From: a virus
Lineage: Duplodnaviria; Caudoviricetes
DNA: 64,000 nucleotides
Virus record (IMG/VR): IMGVR_UViG_3300005614_001084
Span: 108,311-172,310 of that record
Direction: 5' to 3' (one strand)
Shown one piece after another: positions 39,601 through 61,156 of the stretch (positions are counted from its first letter, which is position 1; each line of letters opens with the position of its first letter). Made by a program: the position numbers and the translations under genes. Below the pieces are notes generated by a model. It was not told the origin of the DNA. It made no database searches and worked only from the letters and a program-made list of their open reading frames with translations.

Positions 39601-41352
39601 CTAGATTGCTCGGCCCGGACCGTAGAACGCCGCCGGTGCCAGCGGAGATTCCGCTGGACTCGACAGGATGTTCGAGGCCGTCTGGATCCCCTTGTACCCG
39701 CCGTAGGTCGCAAGACCTCCGGCTGCCGCGACACCGCCGAGCGCGAGGTTTCGCGGGGTCAGGGGATTCAGCGATCGCCGCTGTGCAGCCGGAGCCGCAG
39801 CAGTGGTGGTCACGGGGGTCGGGACTCCCCCGGGCGCCGGAGACGGAGGTGCGACGTTCGGCGGCGCCTTGGGCGCCAGCGCAGGCCTCGCGCGGCCCGC
39901 TTCTGCCATCGTGGCTCCACGCGGATCGAGGATGGTGGGTCGGCCTCCGGCGTTGCGTGATGCCAGGCTGGCCTCCATCTGACGACCGCGCTGCATCACC
40001 GCCGGAGACACCTCGCGGCCCAGACGCGCGCTCTGGAACGCCGCCTGAGCCCGGTTCGCCATGCCCGGAGCGCCACCGGCCACCAGCGCCTTGGCGCCGG
40101 CCACCGCCTGCTCGCCGTGACGCACGAGCTGACCGCCGATACGACCGAGCTGTTCGAGGAGCGCCGTCTTCTCCTGCTCCGTGCGGTACTCGAAGTCCGG
40201 GTACAAACGGGTCGCGATCTTCTCCAGCTTCATCTTGCGATTGACGACCCGCTCCGCCACTTCGTCGGCTTCGCAACCACCGAGTCCCCGTCGCTCCATC
40301 TCGGCCTGGACGGCCTTGAAGGTATTGGGATCGTGCTTCTGGTCCGCCTGCTTCTCCGCCGGCAGTACCTTGTTGATGCCCTTGGCGATCGAGTGGGTGA
40401 CACCCGGCGCCACCATCGCGAGGCCCGCCAGCTCGCGCGCGTGGCTGTGGCCGAACGCGGAGTCCGGACCGAACTTCTCCAGCGCGCGCCCGGCGAGCTG
40501 AAGCTTCGGGTTCTTCGCCTTCGACAGCATGTGACCGGCCGCGCCCGCGGCGTACGGAGCTGCGAGCACACCAATGCCGACGTCGTCGACACGATCTGCG
40601 ATGCGGGACGTGCGGTCGTTGTCGGCCGCGGTCTTCACTTCTCGTTTGCCCTGATCGCGCTCCTGGCGACTCATCGAGGCCTGCGAGTAGTTGGTCACCG
40701 CCGGCAGCGTGGAGATCCCGGGCGTCCCCTCGCCGAGCAGGTCACCGTTGGCCACCTTCGGCAGAACGAGATCTTCTCCGAGGCTGAGCTTGACGAGGTT
40801 CAGCTCGGTGAGCAGCGAGGCGTGCTTCTTCCGCTTCGCGTCGCGCTCCTTCTTCTCCTTGAGCTTCTCGGGGTGATCCATGAAGTACTGGATCATGTCG
40901 CCATTGGCGATCTTCTGGCCGTGGTTGTCCTTGTGTAGGACCTTCGCCTTGAAGTCTTCCACGCTCATCTCCTTCATGCCGCCGAAGAACCGATGATCAT
41001 CGTACTGCTTGAGGTAGGCGAACTTCGCCTCTGCCGCGTTCTTGAACGCGAGCATCACCTTCTGCTCGTCGAACTGCTTCCAGTCCTTGCCGTCGTCCGG
41101 GGTAGACGGCTTCTTCATCTGATCGACGATGTACACTTTCGTGGCTTCGAGATCCGGGCCGACGTAGACATCGACGTGGTCGCCGTCGGTGCCCTTGGTG
41201 CCGCGGATGTAGCCGTAGTCGAAGTGCATCTTCGTGTGGCCAGTCTCCTTGCCGTGCGGATCGTACCAACGACGGACGGAGCCCTTCGCGTTCTCGATGC
41301 TGATGTCGAGCCCGTACAGCTTCGTGCGTCCCTGGAGCTTGTGAGCGACCAT
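39601..41352 (-). CDS. Probable virion protein with N-terminal inorganic-pyrophosphatase-like (InPase) domain
   Basis: ISIENAKGSVR, DYGYIRGT.GTDGDHVDVYVGP, FDEQKVMLAF; K-x-A motifs downstream. Confidence 0.8.
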   Translation of the reverse strand: MVAHKLQGRTKLYGLDISIENAKGSVRRWYDPHGKETGHTKMHFDYGYIRGTKGTDGDHVDVYVGPDLEATKVYIVDQMKKPSTPDDGKDWKQFDEQKVMLAFKNAAEAKFAYLKQYDDHRFFGGMKEMSVEDFKAKVLHKDNHGQKIANGDMIQYFMDHPEKLKEKKERDAKRKKHASLLTELNLVKLSLGEDLVLPKVANGDLLGEGTPGISTLPAVTNYSQASMSRQERDQGKREVKTAADNDRTSRIADRVDDVGIGVLAAPYAAGAAGHMLSKAKNPKLQLAGRALEKFGPDSAFGHSHARELAGLAMVAPGVTHSIAKGINKVLPAEKQADQKHDPNTFKAVQAEMERRGLGGCEADEVAERVVNRKMKLEKIATRLYPDFEYRTEQEKTALLEQLGRIGGQLVRHGEQAVAGAKALVAGGAPGMANRAQAAFQSARLGREVSPAVMQRGRQMEASLASRNAGGRPTILDPRGATMAEAGRARPALAPKAPPNVAPPSPAPGGVPTPVTTTAAAPAAQRRSLNPLTPRNLALGGVAAAGGLATYGGYKGIQTASNILSSPAESPLAPAAFYGPGRAI

Positions 41353-48211: not shown

Positions 48212-51200
48212 TCAGATGACGAGCGTGATCTTGACGTAGTTGAGCGGGTACAGCACGCCGACGGTGACGTCGATCTCCAGGGTGTCGGGCGCCGAGGCGC
48301 TCTGGCGGATGGCGTTCACCTCGAAGCTCTTGAGCACACCGTTCTTCACGAGGAAGGCGGCGAGGCCGTCGAGGACGATGCTGATCGCATCCTGGACGTT
48401 CGTCGTGATGTTGTAGCGACCGATGAAGTTCTTCAGGCCGCCGCGGATGAACTTCGCCGTGAAGTCGAGGGCGCGCGTGATCGACGTCTCGCGCTTCTCG
48501 ATCGTCGACATGTCGGTGGTGAGCTGGTGCCGCGTCTTCACCGGCTGCCCGTCGGCTTCCTGGTAGAGCACCCACAGACCACCGCCGCTCAGGATCTTGA
48601 GCTGCGCCTCGGAGTAGCGGTCCTGGGAACCCAGGACGCCGGTGAAGCCCGCGATGCTCTCCTCGGTGAGCGGCTGGCTCGGGTCCACCGCGCTCATCTT
48701 GCCGGCGAGCGCCGCCGCCAGGTAGTAGCCGGCGATGGCGGTCTCCAGGCCGCCGAGCGAGGCCTTGGCCTGGTCGGGTGCCGTGGCGATGACGCGACGG
48801 TCGAGGTAGCCGCGCGCGATGTCGGCGTACGCGATGGCCTCGTCGGTGCGGTTGCCCAGCGCGCCGCCCAGGATGAACACCGAGACCGGACGGTCGACGA
48901 TCGCCGAGGTGAACACCGGGCTGCCCTCGCCGTCGAAGAACAGCGTGTTGCCGGCGCTCAGCGGACCATCGTTGATCGTGGCGTTCGGGCCCACGACGCT
49001 CTCCACGAGGTAGCGGTTGGTGTCGTCCTCGAACATGAGGAAGACGCCATCGGCCTCGACGTACGTCGGGCCGGGCTTGCCGAGGGCGGCCAGCTTCGCC
49101 TGGAGATCGGCGATGCCGGTGTTGACGACGTTCGTCGGCGGGCCCGCCACGTTCGCCGTGGGAGCCGAAGCGACGAGGGTGTCACTCTTCCGCGTCGGAC
49201 GCGTCGGGTTGAGGATCGCGATGCGCTCCAGGCCGTTCTCCGGCTTGCTCAGCTCGTCCACGTGGACCTGGGCGACCTGCCCGACGGTGCCGGCGTGGGT
49301 GAGCGGCGCGATGCCGTAGACGTCCTTCGACTCCAGGTACTCGAAGCCGCGGGTGTAGGCGTCGAGCGTGCCCTCGGGCTCGCCTGCCGAGATCGCATCG
49401 ACACCGAGCCCCGTGACCTCGACGCCCGGGGCGTTGAGGATCGCGAAGTACATGCCGAGACCGAGCGGGTTCTGGGTGTCGAGCGGGGCCAGCGCGGCCT
49501 CCAGCGCGGTCGTGGTGCCGAAGCGGAGGAGGTTGAAGTCCGTGCCGCTCGTCGTCACGTCCTTGCGAAGCGCGTTGTACGCGACGTACGTCGCCAGCGG
49601 GCCGACGTTCGACGGATCGCCGTTGGTGGCGCGGAACAGCTCGTGCTTCACACGAACCGCGCCGCTCGTCACGTCGACCCGAAGATCGGACGAAGGACGC
49701 GAGGTCGTGGAGTCGGAGTTGTCGAGCGCCTTGGCCTGGATGTACCAGGAGCTGCCGGTGTAGCTGAGGAGCTGTTCCACGCTGATGCGCAGGCGGTTGT
49801 CCGGCGTCGCCGGCACCTCGGTGATCTGACCGAGGCGCACGCCGTTGACCCACACCTCGTCACCGACGATCGGCGAGAAGGCGTTGCCGTACACGGCCGA
49901 GACCGTGTTGAACGGCGCGCCACTGCCCGTGAGACCGAGGGCGGTGAGGAGCGTGGAGTCGCTGGCGTTGAGGTCGATGCGGACCTCGCTCTCGCGCCCG
50001 CCGTTGGTGTCGAGGCCGTGCAGCACGAGGTTGTTCGCCCCGTTCAGCGACGCCGCGCCTGCGCCCCAGAGCGCGTTGATAGCGGTGATGAGCGTCGCCG
50101 CGCTCGTCACCGACGTGCTGAACACGATCTGCTGGAACTGGTCGCCACCGATGCTCATGCGGAGCACGCGGCCCTGCACGCTGGCCGAGTACGTCACGGC
50201 CGTGAGGTCGGTGTTGCCCTGCGCGCGAGCCTTGCTCGGCTTGCCTGCGGCGTAGCTGCCGATCGCGAGACCGATCGTGGCCTCGTTGATGGTGCCGCCC
50301 GCACCGATCTCGATGCCCGACACCGCGCCCGTGGCGAGCGACGTGATGACGGGGTGGTTCGCGCCGTTCAGCACCGCCGTGGCGAAGCCGGAGAGGCCCG
50401 AGTTGAGCTGACCGATCGCGGCCGGCGCGTTGCCCGGGCTCGCGAACGTCACGGTGTGCGACACGCCGTCCACGAGGACTTCGAGCGTGAAGGTGCCGAA
50501 CTCCGCGGGGTACGACAGCGTCGTCCAGTCGACCGTGCCGGTGAGCGCGGCGGCCTTGTCGTGGAACACCGCGTTGGCGAAGTTCAGGTACGGCGAGAGG
50601 TTGTCGCCGTCCCCGTCGTTCTGCACCGTGACCGCCGACGTCGCGCCGTCGAGGAAGCTCTCCGTGCGGAGCACCTCGCGGACGTTGCCGCTGCCGTCGT
50701 TGATGAAGACGCGGACGGTATCGAACTCGATCGTCACCTGGTCGATGATCTTGCGCGGATCCGGGTAGTCGGGCAGGCCGATCTTGAGGTCCCAGAAGTT
50801 GTTGTAGCCGGACGCGCCGACGTTCGTGTAGCCCTTCGTGATGGCGAAGGCCGTGAGCACGGCACTGCTCGTGCTCGCGCCGACCTGGAGGCTGGCGTTC
50901 TCGCCCGTGACCTCGGTGTAGACGACGACGCGCTTCTGCGTGCCGCTGATCTCCACCGTGGCGTGCAGGCCCGGGATCTCGGCCGAGTTGATGGCATCCG
51001 CCACCTGATCGACCGTGAGGTTCGGGCCCGTGCCGAACACGACCTGATCGGGGGCGGCGTTGTTCACGCTGACCTCGAACGTGTTCGTGCCGACGCTGGC
51101 GTACTCGAACGGCGAGCTGACGTACTTGAACGCGATGCGCGCGGGTTCCGCGATGCGCGCGTCGGGGTTCAGGCTCCCGTCGTCCTGCACCGCTTCGATG

Positions 51201-51316
51201 ACCTGGATGCAAGGGCCCATGATGCACGCCGGCATCGTGGGGGTGAGGATCGTCGGGCTGACGGTCTGGAAGTCCTGGATGACCTGGACACTGGGACGCT
51301 CGATGGTGGCAACCAT
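48212..51316 (-). CDS. Contractile tail sheath protein (1034 aa)
   Basis: N-terminal RPSVQV; C-terminal YLAAALAG, RHQLTTD, E.SITRALD, YPLNYVKITLVI. Confidence 0.88.
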   Translation of the reverse strand: MVATIERPSVQVIQDFQTVSPTILTPTMPACIMGPCIQVIEAVQDDGSLNPDARIAEPARIAFKYVSSPFEYASVGTNTFEVSVNNAAPDQVVFGTGPNLTVDQVADAINSAEIPGLHATVEISGTQKRVVVYTEVTGENASLQVGASTSSAVLTAFAITKGYTNVGASGYNNFWDLKIGLPDYPDPRKIIDQVTIEFDTVRVFINDGSGNVREVLRTESFLDGATSAVTVQNDGDGDNLSPYLNFANAVFHDKAAALTGTVDWTTLSYPAEFGTFTLEVLVDGVSHTVTFASPGNAPAAIGQLNSGLSGFATAVLNGANHPVITSLATGAVSGIEIGAGGTINEATIGLAIGSYAAGKPSKARAQGNTDLTAVTYSASVQGRVLRMSIGGDQFQQIVFSTSVTSAATLITAINALWGAGAASLNGANNLVLHGLDTNGGRESEVRIDLNASDSTLLTALGLTGSGAPFNTVSAVYGNAFSPIVGDEVWVNGVRLGQITEVPATPDNRLRISVEQLLSYTGSSWYIQAKALDNSDSTTSRPSSDLRVDVTSGAVRVKHELFRATNGDPSNVGPLATYVAYNALRKDVTTSGTDFNLLRFGTTTALEAALAPLDTQNPLGLGMYFAILNAPGVEVTGLGVDAISAGEPEGTLDAYTRGFEYLESKDVYGIAPLTHAGTVGQVAQVHVDELSKPENGLERIAILNPTRPTRKSDTLVASAPTANVAGPPTNVVNTGIADLQAKLAALGKPGPTYVEADGVFLMFEDDTNRYLVESVVGPNATINDGPLSAGNTLFFDGEGSPVFTSAIVDRPVSVFILGGALGNRTDEAIAYADIARGYLDRRVIATAPDQAKASLGGLETAIAGYYLAAALAGKMSAVDPSQPLTEESIAGFTGVLGSQDRYSEAQLKILSGGGLWVLYQEADGQPVKTRHQLTTDMSTIEKRETSITRALDFTAKFIRGGLKNFIGRYNITTNVQDAISIVLDGLAAFLVKNGVLKSFEVNAIRQSASAPDTLEIDVTVGVLYPLNYVKITLVI

Positions 51317-52153: not shown

Positions 52154-52683
52154 GCCTTCTCTGCTTCCTCTCGCCGATCTGCCATGGCGTGGCGCGACTG
52201 CGCCGCGGCGAGCGCACCGACGAGCGAAAGCCCGCCCGTCACCACCGGCATTGCAGCAAGCCAGCCAGGTCGCTGTCCGCTTCGTGCCACGCTGTCCCCG
52301 ATGATCTCGGCTAGCGTACGGCCGATGCCGTACCCGATGCCGCCTCCGATTGCGGCCACCGGCAGATCCTTGAGGGTCCGTTTCCAGCCGGCCGGCGACA
52401 GGGTCTCGGAGGCGTGCTGAACATCGGGATGCACCATCGACTGCTTCTTCATCAGCTCTCGCTGCGTCTTGCGGGAGCTGGGAAGATCATCTTCGTGCAT
52501 CGCGCACATGTCACCGACGGTGCCCGGGCCTTCGAGCGCGGTCTTGGTGACCGTCTTGATCCCGAAGCTTCCCGGCAGAGGAGCGCGCATCACCGACGTG
52601 GGACGCGGCGTCATCAGACGCGTCTGCGCCTTGGCCAGCATCCCGGGCTGAACCATCGGCGCGAGCATGGCGAGCTTGTCCAT
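52150..52683 (-). CDS. Glycine-zipper K-x-A virion protein
   Basis: AIGGGIGYGIG; MDKLA, TKTA. Confidence 0.6.
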   Translation of the reverse strand: MDKLAMLAPMVQPGMLAKAQTRLMTPRPTSVMRAPLPGSFGIKTVTKTALEGPGTVGDMCAMHEDDLPSSRKTQRELMKKQSMVHPDVQHASETLSPAGWKRTLKDLPVAAIGGGIGYGIGRTLAEIIGDSVARSGQRPGWLAAMPVVTGGLSLVGALAAAQSRHAMADRREEAEKA

Positions 52684-53213
52684 CAGCGCTTCGTCGCCTC
52701 GTAGGCCGCCGCGCCGGCCGCGCCGGCACCCAGCGCCGCGGTGCCCTGTCCGACTCGCTTCGCCAGCTCCAGGCGTCCGGCGATGCCCTTGCCGCCCAAC
52801 GCTGCGGTACCCTTGTTCACCAAATCCAAGGCGCGGCCCTGCTGCCCCACGGCCTTCGCCGCGCGCATGCCGGCGCCCATGACGTGCTGGCCGATCGTCG
52901 TGAACGCATCGGCCTTCTTGATCCGGTCCTCGAACCCCTCCAGCGCTGCCTTCTTCATCCGTGCCTCCCGACGCTCCTGCGTGACGGTGTCTCGAAGTGT
53001 ACGTTCCTTGCCGCGCAAGCGCCCGATCCTCGCGCCCGAGTCTGCGCCCAGGAGCGCTCCGGCCGCCATGCCTGCCGCATGATACTTCGGATGCGCATGC
53101 GTCAGCGCGCGCCCCACCGCTGCTCCGATGAGGCCGCCCTTCGCCGAGTGGTGGATCTCGTCGTTCTTCTCCATCACGGCGTGGAGCTTGCCCTCGTGTT
53201 CCGCCTTGTTCAT
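52683..53213 (-). CDS. Glycine-zipper K-x-A virion protein
   Basis: GGLIGAAVG, AAGALLGA; KKAA, KKAD. Confidence 0.6.
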   Translation of the reverse strand: MNKAEHEGKLHAVMEKNDEIHHSAKGGLIGAAVGRALTHAHPKYHAAGMAAGALLGADSGARIGRLRGKERTLRDTVTQERREARMKKAALEGFEDRIKKADAFTTIGQHVMGAGMRAAKAVGQQGRALDLVNKGTAALGGKGIAGRLELAKRVGQGTAALGAGAAGAAAYEATKR

Positions 53214-54124
53214 CACTCCTCCGGATCTCTGGGGTACGTGGGGTAGTTGGCGAAGATGTCCGGAGACATCTCGTCGATGCTGTCCATCAGATCGGTCGGA
53301 TTCGTGAACATCCGCGGCGGTGATGCCTGGATGTCCTTCAATGCTTGCTCGATCTTGATCGGAATCCGGTACTCGATGTCGGTGTCGTTGAGCTGAAAGA
53401 GCACCAGCTCCTGCTTGATGGGCGTGCGCAGGCGTTCCGACTGCGTCTGCTTCTCCACCCGCCAGCGCTTGTTCTCCGATTCCACGATCAGATCCTTGGG
53501 CCGGACGTTCGGATAGAACGTCATGCGAGCGGTCGTCATCGTGGTCTGCGACGTCTGCTGCGAGTTGTTCTGTACCGCCTTCGCCGCGGGATCGATCTGA
53601 ATCCAAACTTCGATCGGGTTGTTGTATCCACGAAGGAAGCCGGTGTCGTAGCAGGAGAGGCAGTTCGCACGCGTCTTACGCTTGCTGATGCTGTCCCAGC
53701 ACGAAAGACAGCGCAGCCCTGTAGAGCGCCGCGGGAAGAGCCAGCAGAGCCGTCCCGTGGCCTGGGTAAGGAGCGTCTGCTCCATCCGGCGGGTGTAGTT
53801 GGCGATCAGGTCTGGTTCCGCCTCGCGACACACAGGGCCGTAGTCCTTGAGTGCTCCGCTGGCCTTGTGCTTGGTCTGTAGCCGGTACCAGATCTGACGA
53901 AACTTGTCGCCGGCCGGCAAGCGTCGATCGACGAAGATGTACCGCTCCTCGAACGGCTGCGTGATGGCATCGAAGGGTCCTTCCGGCGACTCCGAGCGCA
54001 GGATCTGGAACGTGTAGTCGAGCGCGTCCTCCAGGGTGCCGTCAGCCAGCTCCCAGGTGATCTCGTTCTCGTCTGCGTCCAGGCTGCGAACCCGAAGCCG
54101 CTCGATCGGAAGAACCTTGGCCAT
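53213..54124 (-). CDS. Probable neck/head-closure protein with Zn-binding insert
   Basis: FN3-like N-terminus; RCLSCWD..CLSCYDTGFLRGY; DLIVE..RWRV. Confidence 0.6.
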   Translation of the reverse strand: MAKVLPIERLRVRSLDADENEITWELADGTLEDALDYTFQILRSESPEGPFDAITQPFEERYIFVDRRLPAGDKFRQIWYRLQTKHKASGALKDYGPVCREAEPDLIANYTRRMEQTLLTQATGRLCWLFPRRSTGLRCLSCWDSISKRKTRANCLSCYDTGFLRGYNNPIEVWIQIDPAAKAVQNNSQQTSQTTMTTARMTFYPNVRPKDLIVESENKRWRVEKQTQSERLRTPIKQELVLFQLNDTDIEYRIPIKIEQALKDIQASPPRMFTNPTDLMDSIDEMSPDIFANYPTYPRDPEE

Positions 54125-55074
54125 CACCCCTCCGCCGGCTGACGCCGATAGAGACCGAGGACCTGGGCCTTGGGCGTCGTCATGAAGTCCGACGGTACCA
54201 CGGCGCTGCGACTGCGGTTCGGTACGAGCTTGGTGCCGAAGCTCTTCGAGATGAGCGTCGAGCAGATCTCGTTTTCCAGCTTGCGGCTGTCCGACCCCAC
54301 GGGGAGCACGCGGCTGCCCAGGGTGTGGAAGAGCTGGGGCACCGAGTAGCGGACCTTGTCCGGCGTCTCTTTCGCCTTCAAGATCTTGGACAGCGCCTTC
54401 TCTCGTCCCTCGTCGCTGACGTTCGGGCGCACCACTGCGATGTCGACCTCCTTGGCCATGTCGGCGAGGTTGCGCTCGTGGATGCCGCCGTCGAGGCGGA
54501 AGTCGATGACCTTCCCCTTGCCGGCGTACATCGCGGAATGCGTGAGATCACCCTGGATGGCGTGACTCACGGTATTGAAAGCGCGCTGGGTGAGCGTGGG
54601 CCCACCCGGATCGGGCTTCGGTGACATGACGAGGATGTCGCCACGACGCGCCGTGCGTTCGAGATGCGCGTAGTCGGCGAGCGTGGGGTGCTCGGCCGAG
54701 CCCATCTTGAGGATCGGTGGAGGCGCGATGTTGGGCCGGAAGGGATTGGCACCGGGCGCCGGCACGTGCCCCATGGCCTGCGCAAGCTGTCCGGCACCAC
54801 GCGCCTGCACGCGGGCACGAAGCTGCTGCCCCAGCACCTCCGGAGTCGCCTGCTGCATCGCCGAAGCGACTGGAGCCGCCCGAGCCGTCAGCGCGGCCTG
54901 AGCGGCTTGGTGAGCCGGCGTCGAACTGACGCCCTTGTAGTAGTTGGCCAGGCCCGCGACCTCGGCCTTACGCGCCACTCCAGCGCCCTGCTGCGCCAGA
55001 CGTGCCGCTGATGTGACGTGCCGGGCAAGCTGCCCAGCTTCCAGGCCGATCGTTGCGAGACCGGCCGCCTTCAG
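54124..55074 (-). CDS. Permuted papain-like amidase (YiiX/NlpC-P60-like) module, probably translated by -1 frameshift from the upstream gene
   Basis: RGDILV, THSAMYAG, YS, ICSTLIS, VPSDF; frame open back through slippery site. Confidence 0.75.
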   Translation of the reverse strand: MKAAGLATIGLEAGQLARHVTSAARLAQQGAGVARKAEVAGLANYYKGVSSTPAHQAAQAALTARAAPVASAMQQATPEVLGQQLRARVQARGAGQLAQAMGHVPAPGANPFRPNIAPPPILKMGSAEHPTLADYAHLERTARRGDILVMSPKPDPGGPTLTQRAFNTVSHAIQGDLTHSAMYAGKGKVIDFRLDGGIHERNLADMAKEVDIAVVRPNVSDEGREKALSKILKAKETPDKVRYSVPQLFHTLGSRVLPVGSDSRKLENEICSTLISKSFGTKLVPNRSRSAVVPSDFMTTPKAQVLGLYRRQPAEG

Positions 55075-55096
55075 AAAGGGCCGGGGCGGCCCTCCC
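55044..55096 (-). promoter_or_regulatory. Programmed -1 ribosomal frameshift signal
   Basis: GGAGG, 10 nt, C CCT TTC heptamer before TGA, 7-nt spacer, 8-bp hairpin. Confidence 0.75.
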
Positions 55097-56210
55097 GGAC
55101 CGCCGAGAGGAGAGACGACGTCTTGCTGATCGTTTCCTTGACCGTGGGCTCCGAAGGCTTCGAAGCATCGGTCTCCTTCACGCCCGGGAACTTGCGATGC
55201 ACAGCGGCTCGCACCTTCGCCTGCACCTCCGGCGATCCGAACTGCGCCGCTCGGGCCAGGGCATTGCGCGCGTGCGCCTCGTCCGGAATCGGGAACTTGC
55301 GCTGAGCCGGAAGCGCGAACTGTCCGCCCTTGAGCGAGTCCCGTTTCTTCTCCGTCAGATCACCGGCCTTCTTTTCGCGATGCTCCTTGAGCTTCTTGAG
55401 CCCATAGCCCGCTGCGGCCACCGGAGCACCCATCATCGCAGCTTCGGCCGCCAGTGCCTTCATGCCCGTACCGGGATTCGGCGCCGCCTGCTTCACCGCA
55501 TCGAGCAGCGTCGCCGACTTCGTGCCGTGCTCCGGGTTGTGGAAGCTGGCGTCCGGCGTCGCGGGGTTCGCGGCGAGCCCGGTCTGCTTCTGCTCCGCCT
55601 CTTCCTCGGGCGTCGCGCGACGCCCCGCGGAGTCGAGCCCGAGCGTGCTGCGTGGCCAGCTCGGGTCCTGCGGATCACCGTTGTTGATCTGACCCACCGT
55701 CTGGATGTCCGCACCGTTGGCTTCGGCGGTCTTGTCCCCTTCCTCAGATGCGGGCATGACCTGCTCGGTGGGCTGCGGCTTCATGGTCGGATCCTTGCCG
55801 CCGCCCTGTCCCTTCATCGCCTTGTGCAGCTCCAGCGCGAGCTGAGCCTTCTGAAGGCGGAGGATGTCCTTCTTCGTCCAGATGTCGTCCTCGGACTCCA
55901 TCTGCGCTTCCATCTTCTCGCGTTCCGCCCGGCGCTTCAGGCGCTGCTGAAGCTCCTGCTGCTCCAGCGCCAGCTCCTGCTCGCAGAGCTGGACGGCCTT
56001 GGCGTGCAGAGGCGAGTCGCAGAACTGGTCGAGCCAGGCGTCACCGCCCGTGCCCTCGGCGAGGCAGCGCGAGAGGTACGCCACCTTCTCGGCCTCGGGT
56101 AGCACGATGAGCGCTTCGAGCTGCTCGATGCTGAGATGATCGAGGTCCGTGGCGGCGATCTTGGTCGGAAGGACCAGGCCGTGAACGAAATCGTGAAGAT
56201 CGTTGTCCAT
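55071..56210 (-). CDS. K-x-A head protein with DUF6582-like domain
   Basis: RDSLKGGQFALPAQRKFPIPDEAHARNALAR. Confidence 0.7.
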   Translation of the reverse strand: MDNDLHDFVHGLVLPTKIAATDLDHLSIEQLEALIVLPEAEKVAYLSRCLAEGTGGDAWLDQFCDSPLHAKAVQLCEQELALEQQELQQRLKRRAEREKMEAQMESEDDIWTKKDILRLQKAQLALELHKAMKGQGGGKDPTMKPQPTEQVMPASEEGDKTAEANGADIQTVGQINNGDPQDPSWPRSTLGLDSAGRRATPEEEAEQKQTGLAANPATPDASFHNPEHGTKSATLLDAVKQAAPNPGTGMKALAAEAAMMGAPVAAAGYGLKKLKEHREKKAGDLTEKKRDSLKGGQFALPAQRKFPIPDEAHARNALARAAQFGSPEVQAKVRAAVHRKFPGVKETDASKPSEPTVKETISKTSSLLSAVREGRPGPF

Positions 56211-56221
56211 CGTCGTCTCCC

Positions 56222-57577
56222 TCACGCCGCCGTGGCGGCTGCTGCCTGCTGGGTCTGTTGCTGTGCTTCGCCCTGTGCGCGCTGCGCCTGGGCGGTTTCC
56301 TTCTTCGCCTTCGAGCCTCCCTTGGCCCCGGCGGCATCCTGCTCCGCCGCCATCTGCTCGGCTGCGGCCTGCTCCTGCGCCATCTGGTTCTGCTGCGACG
56401 AGGTGGCGACGGTGCCGGGACCGGCGCCCTGGCCCTCACCGAAGCCCACGCCCTCCTCCTGAACCGGATCGGCGGAGACGATGTTGGCGAGGTCCTGCCG
56501 AAGCTGCTGGATGCGGATGGACAGACGCATCTTCGCGTCGGCCTGCGCCGCGGCCTGCTCCGCGCTCATCTGGGCCTGCTCGGTGGCCTGATGCGCCATG
56601 TCGGCGCTCTGCTGCGCCTGCATCTGTAGCCCCTCGTTCTCCGCGCCGAGGCTTTCGATCGTCTGCTGCGCCTGCACCTGCTGCTGACCAGCCTGGTCCA
56701 TGCGCCGACGCAGATCTGCGTTCTCGTTCATGAGCTGCGCGCTCTGGAGCATCGCCTCACGGCCGAGCACCGTGCCCAGCGGTTCGGAGCCCGGCGGACC
56801 GACCGGAACGTCGCCCTTCTGCGGCGAGGGCTGGTTCGGTGCGGCGAGCTTCTGACGAAGGATGCGGGTTGCCGCTGCGATCTTCGACGCGGCCTTCGGC
56901 TGCTCGGCCGGAGCTTCGGTCGCCGGCATGTACTGCCAGAGCTTGTCGAGGTGCTCCTGGGCATCCGTCATGATGCTCTCGATCGTGAACTTCATCGGGT
57001 TCTCGCCGAGCATGGCGTGCAGGGTCTTGAACAGGACGATGGCCTGCTGCTCACCTGCGATCAGGAACTTGAGCGCGACCGTGACGTCCGCGCTCGGCTC
57101 CGGCGTCGGGGCGACGGGGATGGGCACGCCGCCAGGGCTGAGCACGCTCATGCGCCGGAGGAAGTACTTCATCTCCTTCAGCTCGCCCTTGGCCTGATCG
57201 GTGAACAGCTCGGCCAGCTCACCACGACCGACGTCGCGCATCGTCTCGCCGTAGTACGTGTACGCCGTGTGCTGGCGCATGCTGTTCGACACGATCTGCG
57301 CCAGGGTCATCACGACCTGACTCAGATCGACAGCGAACTCGCCTTCGAGGTGCCCGGTCTCGTCGGGCGCGCCCTGCTGCGTCGCCGCCGCACCTTCCTG
57401 GGGCGTCGCTTCGTTGCCCATCGCGACGTCGGCGGCGTGCTCGCTGAGGTCGGCGTCGGGCTGGGGCCCTGCCGCGATCTTCTTCAGCCCGACGAAGAAC
57501 ACCGAGGCATCGGCGCGACCCACCGGGGCCACGAGGTCGGCGGTGAGATCCTGCTCCAGCTTGTCGTAGTTGTTCAC
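56222..57577 (-). CDS. K-x-A head protein with ferritin-like four-helix domain and Gln/Ala coiled coil
   Basis: HTAY..ELAELF..QAKGELKE..RR..L.....GEQQAI..F...IMTDAQEHLDKL. Confidence 0.7.
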   Translation of the reverse strand: MNNYDKLEQDLTADLVAPVGRADASVFFVGLKKIAAGPQPDADLSEHAADVAMGNEATPQEGAAATQQGAPDETGHLEGEFAVDLSQVVMTLAQIVSNSMRQHTAYTYYGETMRDVGRGELAELFTDQAKGELKEMKYFLRRMSVLSPGGVPIPVAPTPEPSADVTVALKFLIAGEQQAIVLFKTLHAMLGENPMKFTIESIMTDAQEHLDKLWQYMPATEAPAEQPKAASKIAAATRILRQKLAAPNQPSPQKGDVPVGPPGSEPLGTVLGREAMLQSAQLMNENADLRRRMDQAGQQQVQAQQTIESLGAENEGLQMQAQQSADMAHQATEQAQMSAEQAAAQADAKMRLSIRIQQLRQDLANIVSADPVQEEGVGFGEGQGAGPGTVATSSQQNQMAQEQAAAEQMAAEQDAAGAKGGSKAKKETAQAQRAQGEAQQQTQQAAAATAA

Positions 57578-57587
57578 GGTGTCCTCC

Positions 57588-58046
57588 TCAGGAAAGATCG
57601 ATGATGGTGGCGAGGTTTCCGGCCGACGTGCCCTGCGTGAATCCGAGGACCTTGCCCGACGGCACCGCCCCCGCACTGACGGTGTCGGTGGTGGTGCTGA
57701 AGCCGAACACCGGGTTCGCGGTGCCGTCGCTCTGCACCGTGAAGCCGGCGTCCTTTTGGAACGCCAGGACCACCTGCACGTGCATCTTGCCGTCGGGACC
57801 CGACGTGACGGCCGGTGCATTCTGCACACCCCGCTTCTGCACGATGTTGGAGCCGTAGCCGGAGTTGATGGCCGCGACGATCTGATCCGCCGACATGTCG
57901 CTGCCGAAGGTGATGGTTGCCGCATCGATCTTCAGCGTCAGCCCGTTGACCGGGTTGAGCATGTTGTCGATCTTGGCGGTGAGGATGACGCCGTTGAGCC
58001 GGTCGCCGGTTCCCACCACATCGCTGACGAAAATCTCGTATGCCAT
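57588..58046 (-). CDS. Probable virion structural protein
   Basis: GLTLKID..TITF..QIVAAIN..TANPVFGF resembles the sheath insertion repeats. Confidence 0.6.
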   Translation of the reverse strand: MAYEIFVSDVVGTGDRLNGVILTAKIDNMLNPVNGLTLKIDAATITFGSDMSADQIVAAINSGYGSNIVQKRGVQNAPAVTSGPDGKMHVQVVLAFQKDAGFTVQSDGTANPVFGFSTTTDTVSAGAVPSGKVLGFTQGTSAGNLATIIDLS

Positions 58047-59513: not shown

Positions 59514-60635
59514 TCAGCCGATGCTGACCACCTGCGGGAAGAACTGGCGGTTGCCCGCGCGGTTGTTCTGCTTGCCGAGATCTTCCTCGGCGACCGGCGT
59601 GACGCTCGACAGGATGCTGTCCGCGTTCGTCGTCGGGTTCGCGTCGCCGGAGTACAGCTCCAGCTTGCGGACCGACGCGATGTTGATGATGGACATGCCG
59701 ACGTCCTTCCACGCGACGAACTTGATGAGGTTGATCACCTTGTCGATGTAGAACTTCACGTTGTTCAGCACGTAGAACTTCCCGAGGAAGTCCGGGCTGG
59801 TGAAGCAGTACACGTTGCCCGGACGGAGGATGTCCGTCTTGATCGTGCGCACGTACCGCTTGCCGAGGAGCAGGTTGTACTTGTACCCCTGCACCGCGGT
59901 CTCCGACTGGAGCTTGTCGCCCTGATCTTCGACCGTCCACTGGAGGATGTCGTCCCAGTCCACCGAGGTGAGCAGGATGAGATCCGACTCCAGGCGGTTG
60001 CCATCGAGCAGCTTGATGAGCCGCACGATGTCGGGGCGCTGGATCGGCAGCGCCGTCGCCGTGTAGGGACCCGACGCGACGATGCGCGCCAGCTCACCCT
60101 TCGTCGCCGAGAACTCGACGACGCTGCCCGAGAGGACGTTCGGCGCGTTGAGCGCCGTCGCCGTGCCGCCGTTGGCCTCCGTCTGGAGCGCCTGGATGGC
60201 CGCCTCGATGTGGATGAGGAACTCGCGGTCCTGCACCTCACCGAGGTCGCGCACGGCGTTCTGCTCGATCACCCTCCCGATCGGGAAGGCATACGCGAGG
60301 AACTCCTGCTCCGGCTTCTGGAACATGTCGCTCATCACCGTGATGAACGGCACCTCCACCTTCTCGCCGCGGATGAAGTTCGCGCGCGGCTCGCCGCGGA
60401 ACGTGACGGTCATCGCGCGCGAGCGGGGCTCCAGGTACTCGATCTTCACGAGCGAGTCGTGCTGGGTCGAGACCTGGCACTGCGAGCGGTCGACGTTCTC
60501 GGGCGGGATCACCTGCTCGGCGAACGACGACTCGCGCAGGCGGTCGCGGATGTACCCACCGAACCGCGCGGCGATCTTGGTCTTCGCTGCCGGATCGGAG
60601 AGCTGGTTGAGGAGCATCTCCTTGTTGCTGGCCAT
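59514..60635 (-). CDS. Major capsid protein
   Basis: 373 aa, AAGGAG SD, YIRDRLRESSF, VQDREF, TIKTDI..GNVY.F..PDFLGK; HK97-like layout and position. Confidence 0.8.
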   Translation of the reverse strand: MASNKEMLLNQLSDPAAKTKIAARFGGYIRDRLRESSFAEQVIPPENVDRSQCQVSTQHDSLVKIEYLEPRSRAMTVTFRGEPRANFIRGEKVEVPFITVMSDMFQKPEQEFLAYAFPIGRVIEQNAVRDLGEVQDREFLIHIEAAIQALQTEANGGTATALNAPNVLSGSVVEFSATKGELARIVASGPYTATALPIQRPDIVRLIKLLDGNRLESDLILLTSVDWDDILQWTVEDQGDKLQSETAVQGYKYNLLLGKRYVRTIKTDILRPGNVYCFTSPDFLGKFYVLNNVKFYIDKVINLIKFVAWKDVGMSIINIASVRKLELYSGDANPTTNADSILSSVTPVAEEDLGKQNNRAGNRQFFPQVVSIG

Positions 60636-60679
60636 GGTCTGGTTCTCCTTCTCTCGTTGTCTCGTTGAGGGTCTGGGGC

Positions 60680-61156
60680 TCAGACCAGGGTCTGGAGGAT
60701 GCGCAGGAGACCACCGTTGGTGGCCGCCGGACGCGTGACGTAGCCGATGATGATGCCACCCGCCGAGGCGACGAGGCCGGAGCGGTTGACGCTGCCGGAG
60801 AGCGAGTTGTTGACGGTGCCCTGCTGGACACCGGCACCGACCGCCACGATCGCCGGGTTGTAGACGATGGTGTCGCACTCGAACGCGCCACCGCCCATGA
60901 TGGCGCTGAGCTTGCGCGACGCCTGCACGCCGTAGTCGCCACGATCTTCGATCGTGAAGAACGACGGCTTCGTGGCATCGCTTCCGCGGTTCCACTTGTA
61001 GCTGGCGTCGAGCTGCACCAGCTCGCCCTGGATGAGCGCGACCGGCGACGTGGACGTCGGGTCGAGCAGCTTGACGTCCGAAGCCTCCAGCGGCTTGCGG
61101 ATGAGACGGTCCAGGGTGGGCTGGACGACCTCGAACTTGCGATCGTAGCTGGCCAT
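60680..61156 (-). CDS. Probable head decoration/cement protein
   Basis: 158 aa beta-rich, directly upstream of MCP, IIGYVTRP. Confidence 0.6.
   Translation of the reverse strand: MASYDRKFEVVQPTLDRLIRKPLEASDVKLLDPTSTSPVALIQGELVQLDASYKWNRGSDATKPSFFTIEDRGDYGVQASRKLSAIMGGGAFECDTIVYNPAIVAVGAGVQQGTVNNSLSGSVNRSGLVASAGGIIIGYVTRPAATNGGLLRILQTLV

Follow-up and report, generated by a model that had tools for sequence, protein, structure and literature searches.

The 3' end of one gene in an uncultured tailed phage (Duplodnaviria; Caudoviricetes) raised the question of whether translation stops at the annotated stop codon or continues, through a change of reading frame, into what looks like a separate enzyme gene. 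The gene lies in a stretch of 64,000 nt, hereafter the window, which takes up positions 108,311 to 172,310, the terminal 64 kb, of one 172,310-bp contig with 63% G+C, IMG/VR record IMGVR_UViG_3300005614_001084. Its open reading frame (ORF A, product X) ends with GGC CCT TTC TGA, that is Pro-Phe-stop, and ORF B, called downstream of it, encodes a cysteine hydrolase. A first-pass annotation had proposed that a -1 frameshift signal of the type known from dnaX and from insertion sequences (IS) joins the two ORFs. Homologues of ORF B and of X were searched for, and their contigs were fetched for comparison of the junction DNA. The comparative evidence from these relatives bore the proposal out, and X is very probably joined to the hydrolase by a programmed -1 ribosomal frameshift.

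The elements listed in the annotation were all found in the sequence (coordinates in Table 1). The slippery heptamer C CCT TTC stands in X XXY YYZ phase with ORF A, the Shine–Dalgarno (SD)-like GGAGG (55095..55091) lies exactly 10 nt upstream of it, and a hairpin of 8 bp, including one G.U pair and closing the 7-nt loop UCGCAAC, begins 7 nt downstream. ORF A itself starts behind a good SD sequence (GGGAG, 6 nt before ATG 56210). Past the slip, translation in the -1 frame would give PFLKAAGL..., and no stop is met for 316 codons, until TGA 54126..54124, which overlaps the start of the next gene (GTGATG); the predicted products of 379 and about 695 residues were thereby recovered, the fusion having exactly 695. 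In the window and in the related loci L001, L002, and L012, the stretch of the -1 frame that separates its preceding stop from the heptamer contains no start codon, and the first one downstream is found 32–50 codons past the heptamer at a position that is not conserved. In the window, the first ATG, GTG, or TTG in this frame is GTG 54978, 32 codons past the slip site, and GGAG abuts it directly, leaving no usable SD spacing, while the neighbouring genes have clear SD sequences. The earlier remark that the amidase ORF lacks a good SD thus stood. An Rfam scan of the junction returned a chance match only (E 8) and no catalogued frameshift element.

Two frame layouts around the same heptamer were distinguished among the relatives. 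In type I, represented by the window, L001, L002, L012, and L005, frame 0 stops 0–5 codons past the heptamer and a shift is needed for the long product; the -1 frame is open for 108–399 codons, or, in L012, as far as the contig extends (22 codons). In type II (L006/L007, L008, L013, and L018), X is uninterrupted and an in-phase C CCT TTC encodes the same Pro-Phe. Here frame 0 continues for 109–199 codons (L006, L008, and L013) or to the end of a 569-aa gene (L018), and the -1 frame meets a stop 1–2 codons past the heptamer (TGA, TAA, TAA, and TGA in L006/L007, L008, L013, and L018, respectively), although elsewhere this frame holds only 1–7 stops per gene. L018 was predicted to belong to type II from its protein (GLPFGGE) ahead of reading its DNA, and the DNA agreed. 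Judged from the sequences, the two products (a short X with Pro-Phe at its end and a long X with a C-terminal module) would not change from one layout to the other; what would change is which of them requires the shift.

In the tree built from the N-terminal 300 residues of X, all genes that bear the site formed one clade (support 100/99). The type II lineages were nested among those of type I; hence, the layout changed at least twice. The Pro-Phe cassette was absent from L009 and L016, outside this clade, and from L010 and protein P0010, inside it. P0010 is nearly identical to the X of L006 in the N-terminal region and lacks precisely the slip-site cassette of about 22 residues (ESSLLAAVGGHRGLPFGDEGKI; L006 7150-7260), which amounts to a natural deletion of the recoding site. 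Profile scans of viral, metagenome, and genome contigs with the amidase alignment gave no confirmed relatives, and those with the X alignment returned only a 171.9-kb contig that was already known (L015, the same as L007), the distant site-less L016, and the fragment L017. No match was obtained when X and the amidase were compared by tblastn with 50,697 phage records. A search for longer in-frame X–amidase fusions found none; P0051, a candidate by its length (652 aa), was ruled out, as it consists of three tandem C92-like hydrolase domains.

Conservation of the signal in relatives, to which the first-pass annotation had pointed as a check, was seen most clearly in the heptamer. Nine lineages including the window (five of type I and four of type II) retain C CCT TTC in phase, although their X proteins are only 35–75% identical. 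The codon preceding Pro specifies Gly, Arg, Leu, or His across the relatives, yet it invariably ends with C, and Pro is invariably encoded by CCT. In the genome of the window CCT accounts for 9.9% of Pro codons, and C CCT TTC encodes one of the 64 Pro-Phe dipeptides in the long ORFs. It is because CCT is rare and the heptamer recurs in phase in all nine lineages that keep Pro-Phe that its retention stands out, which the hairpin alone does not. In a systematic study in E. coli, C_CC.U_UU.C is reported to shift at a high level, and the H_HH.U_UU.Y motifs are among the most efficient shifters (PMC4066793).

Translation of the -1 frame from the heptamer onward was indicated by several comparisons. 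Over the 150 nt past the heptamer, the differences between the window and L002 number 6, 9, and 23 at the first, second, and third codon positions of the -1 frame, and by this count the frame is under purifying selection at the protein level. The uninterrupted homologues P0009, P0022, and P0015 read through LPF or RPF into sequence that aligns with the -1 frame of the window. In the junction alignment, ...LLAAVGGHRGLPFGDEGKIASVMSTLAMDAG... of P0009 and ...GRPFGKKANAMSAL...LRLRTQQRGAQQLAQTLG of P0022 stand against the transframe sequence ...LLSAVREGRPGPF/LKAAGLATIGLEAG...LRARVQARGAGQLAQAMG of the window. The C-termini of P0012 and P0014 (ANPFHV..PPPLSMLMGG-end) match residues ~100–125 of the window extension (ANPFRPNIAPPPILKMG), and the motif VLDxLSRTSFDKLS ends the -1 ORF of L005 and likewise P0010, P0015, and P0017.

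The existence of uninterrupted homologues (P0009, P0015, P0022, and P0018), together with the susceptibility of C3T3 runs to indel errors, could also be taken to mean that a single gene was split by one base, either by a mistake in sequencing or assembly or by a mutation that recently inactivated it. This is very improbable, since the same split with the same heptamer occurs in five independent assemblies from different samples, with 25–65% of residues differing, and the purifying selection extends to the downstream frame. Moreover, split and unsplit genes carry one and the same intact heptamer, from which no base has been lost, and none of the five split loci departs from the rule that a frame-0 stop follows within five codons.

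The L001 locus confined the position of the shift. Its -1 frame has a stop 13 codons 5' of the heptamer with no start codon between the two, which leaves an interval of 14 codons for the shift, and CCCTTTC is the sole slippery sequence within it. A complete DUF6582 module follows past the site in the -1 frame, and the first possible start, 50 codons downstream, falls inside this module. The automatic gene call for P0004 begins at such a GTG (L001 1729), inside the DUF6582 domain, and represents a misannotation of a frameshifted gene.

These loci also bear on whether two separate genes are present, ORF B being initiated at GTG 54978 or reinitiated at a CUG overlapping the UGA, and no transframe protein being made. 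The GTG does exist and is used by gene callers, the stop shares bases with a CUG in the window, L001, and L012, and in the distant relatives L005, L013, L003, and L004 the amidase is free-standing and translationally coupled. Nevertheless, the 32 codons that lead from the heptamer to the GTG show conservation at the protein level, and their product is homologous to an internal part of uninterrupted X. The GTG lacks a spaced SD and is replaced by a Thr codon in L001, where initiation at the first start would split the DUF6582 domain, and the CUG is replaced by CGC in L002 and by CAC in L005. Neither a Met nor an SD is conserved at the boundary of the amidase domain. Two independent genes are therefore an improbable arrangement.

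The sequences flanking the heptamer were compared across the same loci; signals of the dnaX/IS3 type would be expected to have an SD-like sequence 10–14 nt 5' of the heptamer and a structure 5–9 nt 3' of it. GGAGG lies exactly 10 nt 5' of the heptamer also in L001 and L002, and it ends 12–13 nt 5' of it in L005, L008, L013, and L018; L012 and L006 have only a run of G residues (GGGGG and GGGGGG) ending 15 and 14 nt upstream. A stable stem starts 5–12 nt 3' of the heptamer in all five type I loci, with z values of -1.3 (window), -2.1, -2.2, -2.3, and -3.5. The hairpin of the window is kept in L002 as a stem of 10 bp, and L012, L001, and L005 have other stable stems. Altogether, the role of these sequences as stimulators of the shift is plausible but unproven.

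The fusion might instead be produced by slippage of RNA polymerase at CCCTTTC, with mRNAs carrying an indel. The C3 and T3 runs are far below the homopolymer sizes known for polymerase slippage, and the signal bears marks of ribosomal shifting: a heptamer whose phase is conserved, an SD-like element at a distance of 10 nt, and stems 3' of the site. Hence, we regard transcriptional slippage as extremely improbable, even though its protein outcome would be the same and Thermus dnaX uses that route (PMC5009743).

Several observations count against a programmed ribosomal frameshift. The support is wholly comparative and derives from metagenome assemblies. The Pro-Phe dipeptide is conserved in its own right, and amino-acid constraint therefore accounts for part of the conservation of the heptamer; a relative with Pro-Phe in non-slippery codons, which would have served as a clean control, was not found among the relatives. 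The efficiency data from E. coli may not transfer to the host of this phage. Downstream of the site, G+C at third codon positions (GC3) is 0.73 in the -1 frame and 0.83 in frame 0 and does not favour the former; the GC3 plot fails to discriminate the frames because the extension is rich in Ala and Gly, and the substitution counts by codon position were used in its place. The window hairpin, with its z of -1.3, is unremarkable for a G+C-rich sequence, as 18 of 200 shuffles fold equally well. The type I stems are not the same helix (those of L012 and L001 have different pairing partners) and are non-homologous between loci, and a stem was absent in two of the three type II loci folded (L006, L008, and L013). 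Finally, what points to a virion role of X is only its gene position, its disorder, and domain fusions.

The annotation had described the shift as appending the amidase to X. This stood insofar as the hydrolase is carried on the shifted product, but it does not follow X directly: the first ~125 residues past the slip site are, by homology, the ancestral C-terminal module of X, and the hydrolase domain of about 190 residues comes behind it. The domain in the window has no Pfam or PHROG match, and PF05708 gave none even at E 10; a profile search of PDB sequences with the amidase alignment yielded nothing useful. Its AlphaFold2 model (predicted local distance difference test score, pLDDT, 73.6; predicted template modelling score, pTM, 0.77) was matched best in Foldseek by the Bacillus cereus cysteine peptidase 3kw0 and E. 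coli YiiX 2if6 (probability 1.00, E 2.5e-5 to 1.7e-4; TM score ~0.58 with sequence identity of 15–16%), with LRAT/PLAAT and NlpC/P60 structures next in the ranking. The profile search for the hydrolase gathered 310 representative clusters. Of 55 free-standing homologues, 31 matched PF05708 (Peptidase_C92; best E 1.6e-12), 19 NLPC_P60, and 4 LRAT. His60, Cys152, and Pro175 (domain numbering) are invariant in the 55 sequences, at a mean identity of 21%. The putative catalytic His (LTHSA) thus precedes the Cys (ICSTLI), an assignment made from the alignment. The reading as a papain-like amidase was thereby confirmed at the superfamily level, with a permuted YiiX/C92-type fold, for what is a predicted enzyme.

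The relation of the hydrolase to X varies among the relatives. In L005 (GTG 6001), L013 (ATGA overlap), L003 (TAATG), and L004 it has a gene of its own, which immediately follows X or the gene in the corresponding position, and L006, L008, L009, L010, and L018 lack it. The clade that comprises the window, L001, and L002 has it fused to the end of the C-terminal module of X, and since neither a start signal nor a Met is conserved at the domain boundary in this clade, the hydrolase can there be made only on the shifted long product. Related combinations were found in P0064, in which a ferritin-like homologue (39% identity to that of the window) is fused in frame to an extension-like module and a C92 hydrolase, and in P0061, in which the invariant motif of X is joined to a C92 hydrolase. 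Other hydrolase relatives are fused to InPase plus SNF2 helicase, NUDIX/ligase, P-loop kinase-like, and glycine-zipper modules.

L003 (3317-4177) and L004 (5340-6080) are the most distant relatives, and in them the free hydrolase gene has a C-terminal glycine-zipper or membrane-like tail, and the gene preceding it ends in a similar Gly/Ala-rich hydrophobic segment. A weak glycine-zipper match was also noted in the window ORF 52683-53606.

The complete account, in which a -1 frameshift yields a 379-residue X and a 695-residue X–module–hydrolase, is in our judgement quite probable from the sequence comparisons. Ribosomes translating X would pause with tRNA-Pro on CCU and tRNA-Phe on UUC, aided by the SD-like GGAGG upstream, the hairpin downstream, and the adjacent UGA, and both tRNAs would re-pair on CCC UUU. 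Those that do not slip would terminate immediately and release the short X, and those that slip would go on to make X followed by its ancestral C-terminal module and a Peptidase_C92-type cysteine hydrolase. The shift would in this manner fix the share of X copies bearing the module and the enzyme. X would be a disordered, packaged protein of the virion module, either internal to the head or ejected, and the hydrolase would travel with the virion and cut cell-envelope material or act as an injected or processing effector. This role of X as a packaged carrier and of the hydrolase as a packaged enzyme is proposed tentatively.

The annotation had further expected the shift to set a low copy number of the amidase, and here the relatives pointed the other way. 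A review notes for dnaX that, when close to 50% of ribosomes shift, changing a single base can be enough to reverse which of the two products depends on shifting (PMC5009743). Relatives with reversed frames at the same site, i.e., repeated swaps of the layout, are most easily tolerated if about half of the ribosomes shift, which hints at a ratio of X isoforms nearer 1:1 than a low copy number would imply. The strong heptamer, the SD at 10 nt, the stem, and the adjacent stop are compatible with an efficiency of about 50%.

X consists of a long helix (residues 69–136), an invariant motif, a DUF6582 module, and long disordered stretches. The motif (residues 173–203) lies within an otherwise disordered stretch, is conserved in 13 of 13 aligned homologues, and, by this conservation, looks like a binding or targeting motif. 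The structure model of X showed the long helix and mostly disorder, and the ESM Atlas model of P0009 had a pLDDT of 0.45; a fold search with the X model was dropped, as the model is too disordered. DUF6582/phrog_16160 is the only family matched by X, with no match to a capsid, scaffold, portal, or decoration protein. The designation of X as a head protein in the first-pass annotation was hence not sustained, its sole support being the position of the gene between the major capsid protein (MCP)-like and sheath genes. The DUF6582 module stands before the site in the window (frame 0) and past it in L001 (-1 frame, 1580-1810), and L002 lacks it. A mobile 60-nt recoding cassette hopping relative to DUF6582 was considered and dropped, as it is simpler to regard the DUF6582 module as the mobile piece. 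This module also terminates many unrelated phage proteins (P0030-P0045), and a literature search found no paper on it.

X lies in the block of virion genes, between the ferritin-like protein and the neck and sheath genes, and the same gene order recurs on metagenomic contigs of 170–200 kb. The ferritin-like gene keeps its place before X in all related contigs, with products of 454–723 aa. The best relative of the MCP-like protein, that of phage Arash, is too distant at 22% identity for transfer of the annotation. A frameshift of the tail assembly chaperone type (G/GT) was rejected for X, which encodes 379 residues upstream of the sheath-like gene and after the ferritin-like protein and is not located between tube and tape-measure genes. 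Elsewhere in the window, an InPase protein of 583 aa has an N-terminal PF18823 domain (E 1e-36) and also matches the PHROG families of minor head protein, virion structural protein, and DarB-like antirestriction protein; it is, by these matches, a candidate packaged effector of the polyvalent-protein type.

Table 1. Features of the X locus and its surroundings in the window, and type I heptamers in related loci.
Feature	Positions	Strand	Remarks
ORF A (X, short product)	55071..56210	minus	379 aa; ATG 56210 to TGA 55073..55071
Slippery heptamer C CCT TTC	55074..55080	minus	phase with ORF A confirmed
Frame-0 stop TGA	55071..55073	minus	directly 3' of the heptamer
SD-like GGGAGG	55091..55096	minus	5' of the heptamer
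Hairpin	55044..55066	minus	GGCCGGUC (55066..55059) / GAUCGGCC (55051..55044)
-1-frame extension, ~125 aa	54700..55074	minus	LKAAGLATIGLE...ANPFRPNIAPPPILKMG; homology with the C-terminal module of X proteins encoded by a single ORF
Cysteine hydrolase domain and stop	54124..54699	minus	permuted NlpC/P60 (Peptidase_C92/YiiX-like)
ORF B as called	54124..54978	minus	
Heptamer, L001	1561		type I; frame 0: immediate TGA
Heptamer, L012	965		type I; frame 0: immediate TGA
Heptamer, L002	526		type I; frame 0: TAG 5 codons on
Heptamer, L005	5667		type I; frame 0: TGA 4 codons on
Invariant motif of X	55602-55694	minus	GQINNGDPxxPxWPRxxLGxDxAGRRATPEE
DUF6582/phrog_16160 module	55176..55364	minus	X residues 283–345; E 8e-17; upstream of the slip site
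Ferritin-like protein	56222..57925	minus	567 aa; PF00210, E 6e-6; directly upstream of X
Three small genes	between MCP-like and ferritin-like genes	minus	
MCP-like gene	59514..60995	minus	phrog_2522; 22% identical to the MCP of Salmonella phage Arash
Four genes of ~180–300 aa	between ORF B and sheath-like gene	minus	
Sheath-like protein	48212..51316	minus	1034 aa
InPase protein	39601..41352	minus	

The arrangement resembles several known systems. With E. coli dnaX (tau/gamma) it shares the in-phase heptamer, the SD-like sequence 10 nt upstream, and the downstream hairpin, and the type II loci (L006, L008, L013, and L018) resemble dnaX further in that the shift leads to a stop 1–2 codons on and to a product without the C-terminal domains. 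It differs in the heptamer (C CCU UUC versus A AAA AAG) and in that the shift gives the longer product in the window; X is moreover an unrelated gene of a phage virion module, and both layouts coexist in its family. As in orfA-orfB of IS3, IS911, and IS150, a short upstream ORF overlaps a startless -1 ORF, SD-like and stem-loop elements (in the window, putative stimulators) are present, and the catalytic domain occurs only in the transframe fusion. No transposase takes part here, however, and the cargo that follows the structural or packaged protein is a cysteine hydrolase. The heptamers that predominate in IS elements are A_AA.A_AA.G/A (PMC4066793).

Among phage genes, similar cases are T7/T3 gene 10A/10B, the immunoglobulin (Ig)-like extensions, and lambda G/GT, in which a -1 shift, conserved and close to the end of a virion gene, yields two products that share an N-terminus and stand in a fixed ratio (PMC5009743). 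X, in contrast, is by the tests made here neither a capsid, a tube, nor a tail-chaperone protein, and its extension carries an enzyme in place of an Ig-like domain. The hydrolase has the fold of Peptidase_C92/YaeF-YiiX (2if6 and 3kw0) and the same order of invariant His before Cys; it differs in lacking a Pfam match, in its low identity, in being phage-encoded, and in its tether to a virion-module protein.

Iyer et al. (2017, PMC5512222) make a case that the polyvalent proteins of phages and conjugative elements undergo packaging and injection. The hydrolase relatives are fused to modules of this kind and the window encodes the InPase protein; here, in contrast, separate genes are joined by recoding and not in one giant polypeptide. 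The PMC5512222 survey mentions no C92/papain-like domain, ferritin-like domain, or frameshifting. A literature search found nothing on peptidoglycan hydrolases appended by frameshifting, and it returned CCCUUUC together with frameshifting only in unrelated papers.

Altogether, a -1 frameshift in a structural module of a phage, with an enzyme as cargo and a natural series of frame swaps, is a variation on an established type of frameshift. The virion-gene frameshifts known in phages concern tail chaperones, coat proteins, and Ig-like extensions, and X would add a further gene family. As gene callers split or truncate such genes, the long product is invisible in databases. One slip site kept in both frame layouts offers a natural swap series for asking how shift efficiency constrains gene architecture. 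The 310 clusters reveal a large unannotated phage branch of the C92/NlpC-P60 superfamily linked to packaged-effector architectures, which suggests a testable idea of function.

With still less assurance than for the packaged carrier, we put forward a history for the family. The recoding cassette, comprising the SD-like element, C CCU UUC, and the stem, may have been long-lived in one gene family of uncultured phages of ~170–200 kb and may have persisted through at least two frame reversals, with an efficiency of about one half and X isoforms at about 1:1. The clade of the window may then have co-opted it, so that a C92 hydrolase that used to be free-standing became tethered to a disordered carrier protein that is packaged. 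In this clade, a hydrolytic enzyme would be makeable only as a transframe fusion to a virion-module protein, and, if the history is true, virions would be loaded with an enzyme by recoding and not by a targeting peptide or gene fusion.

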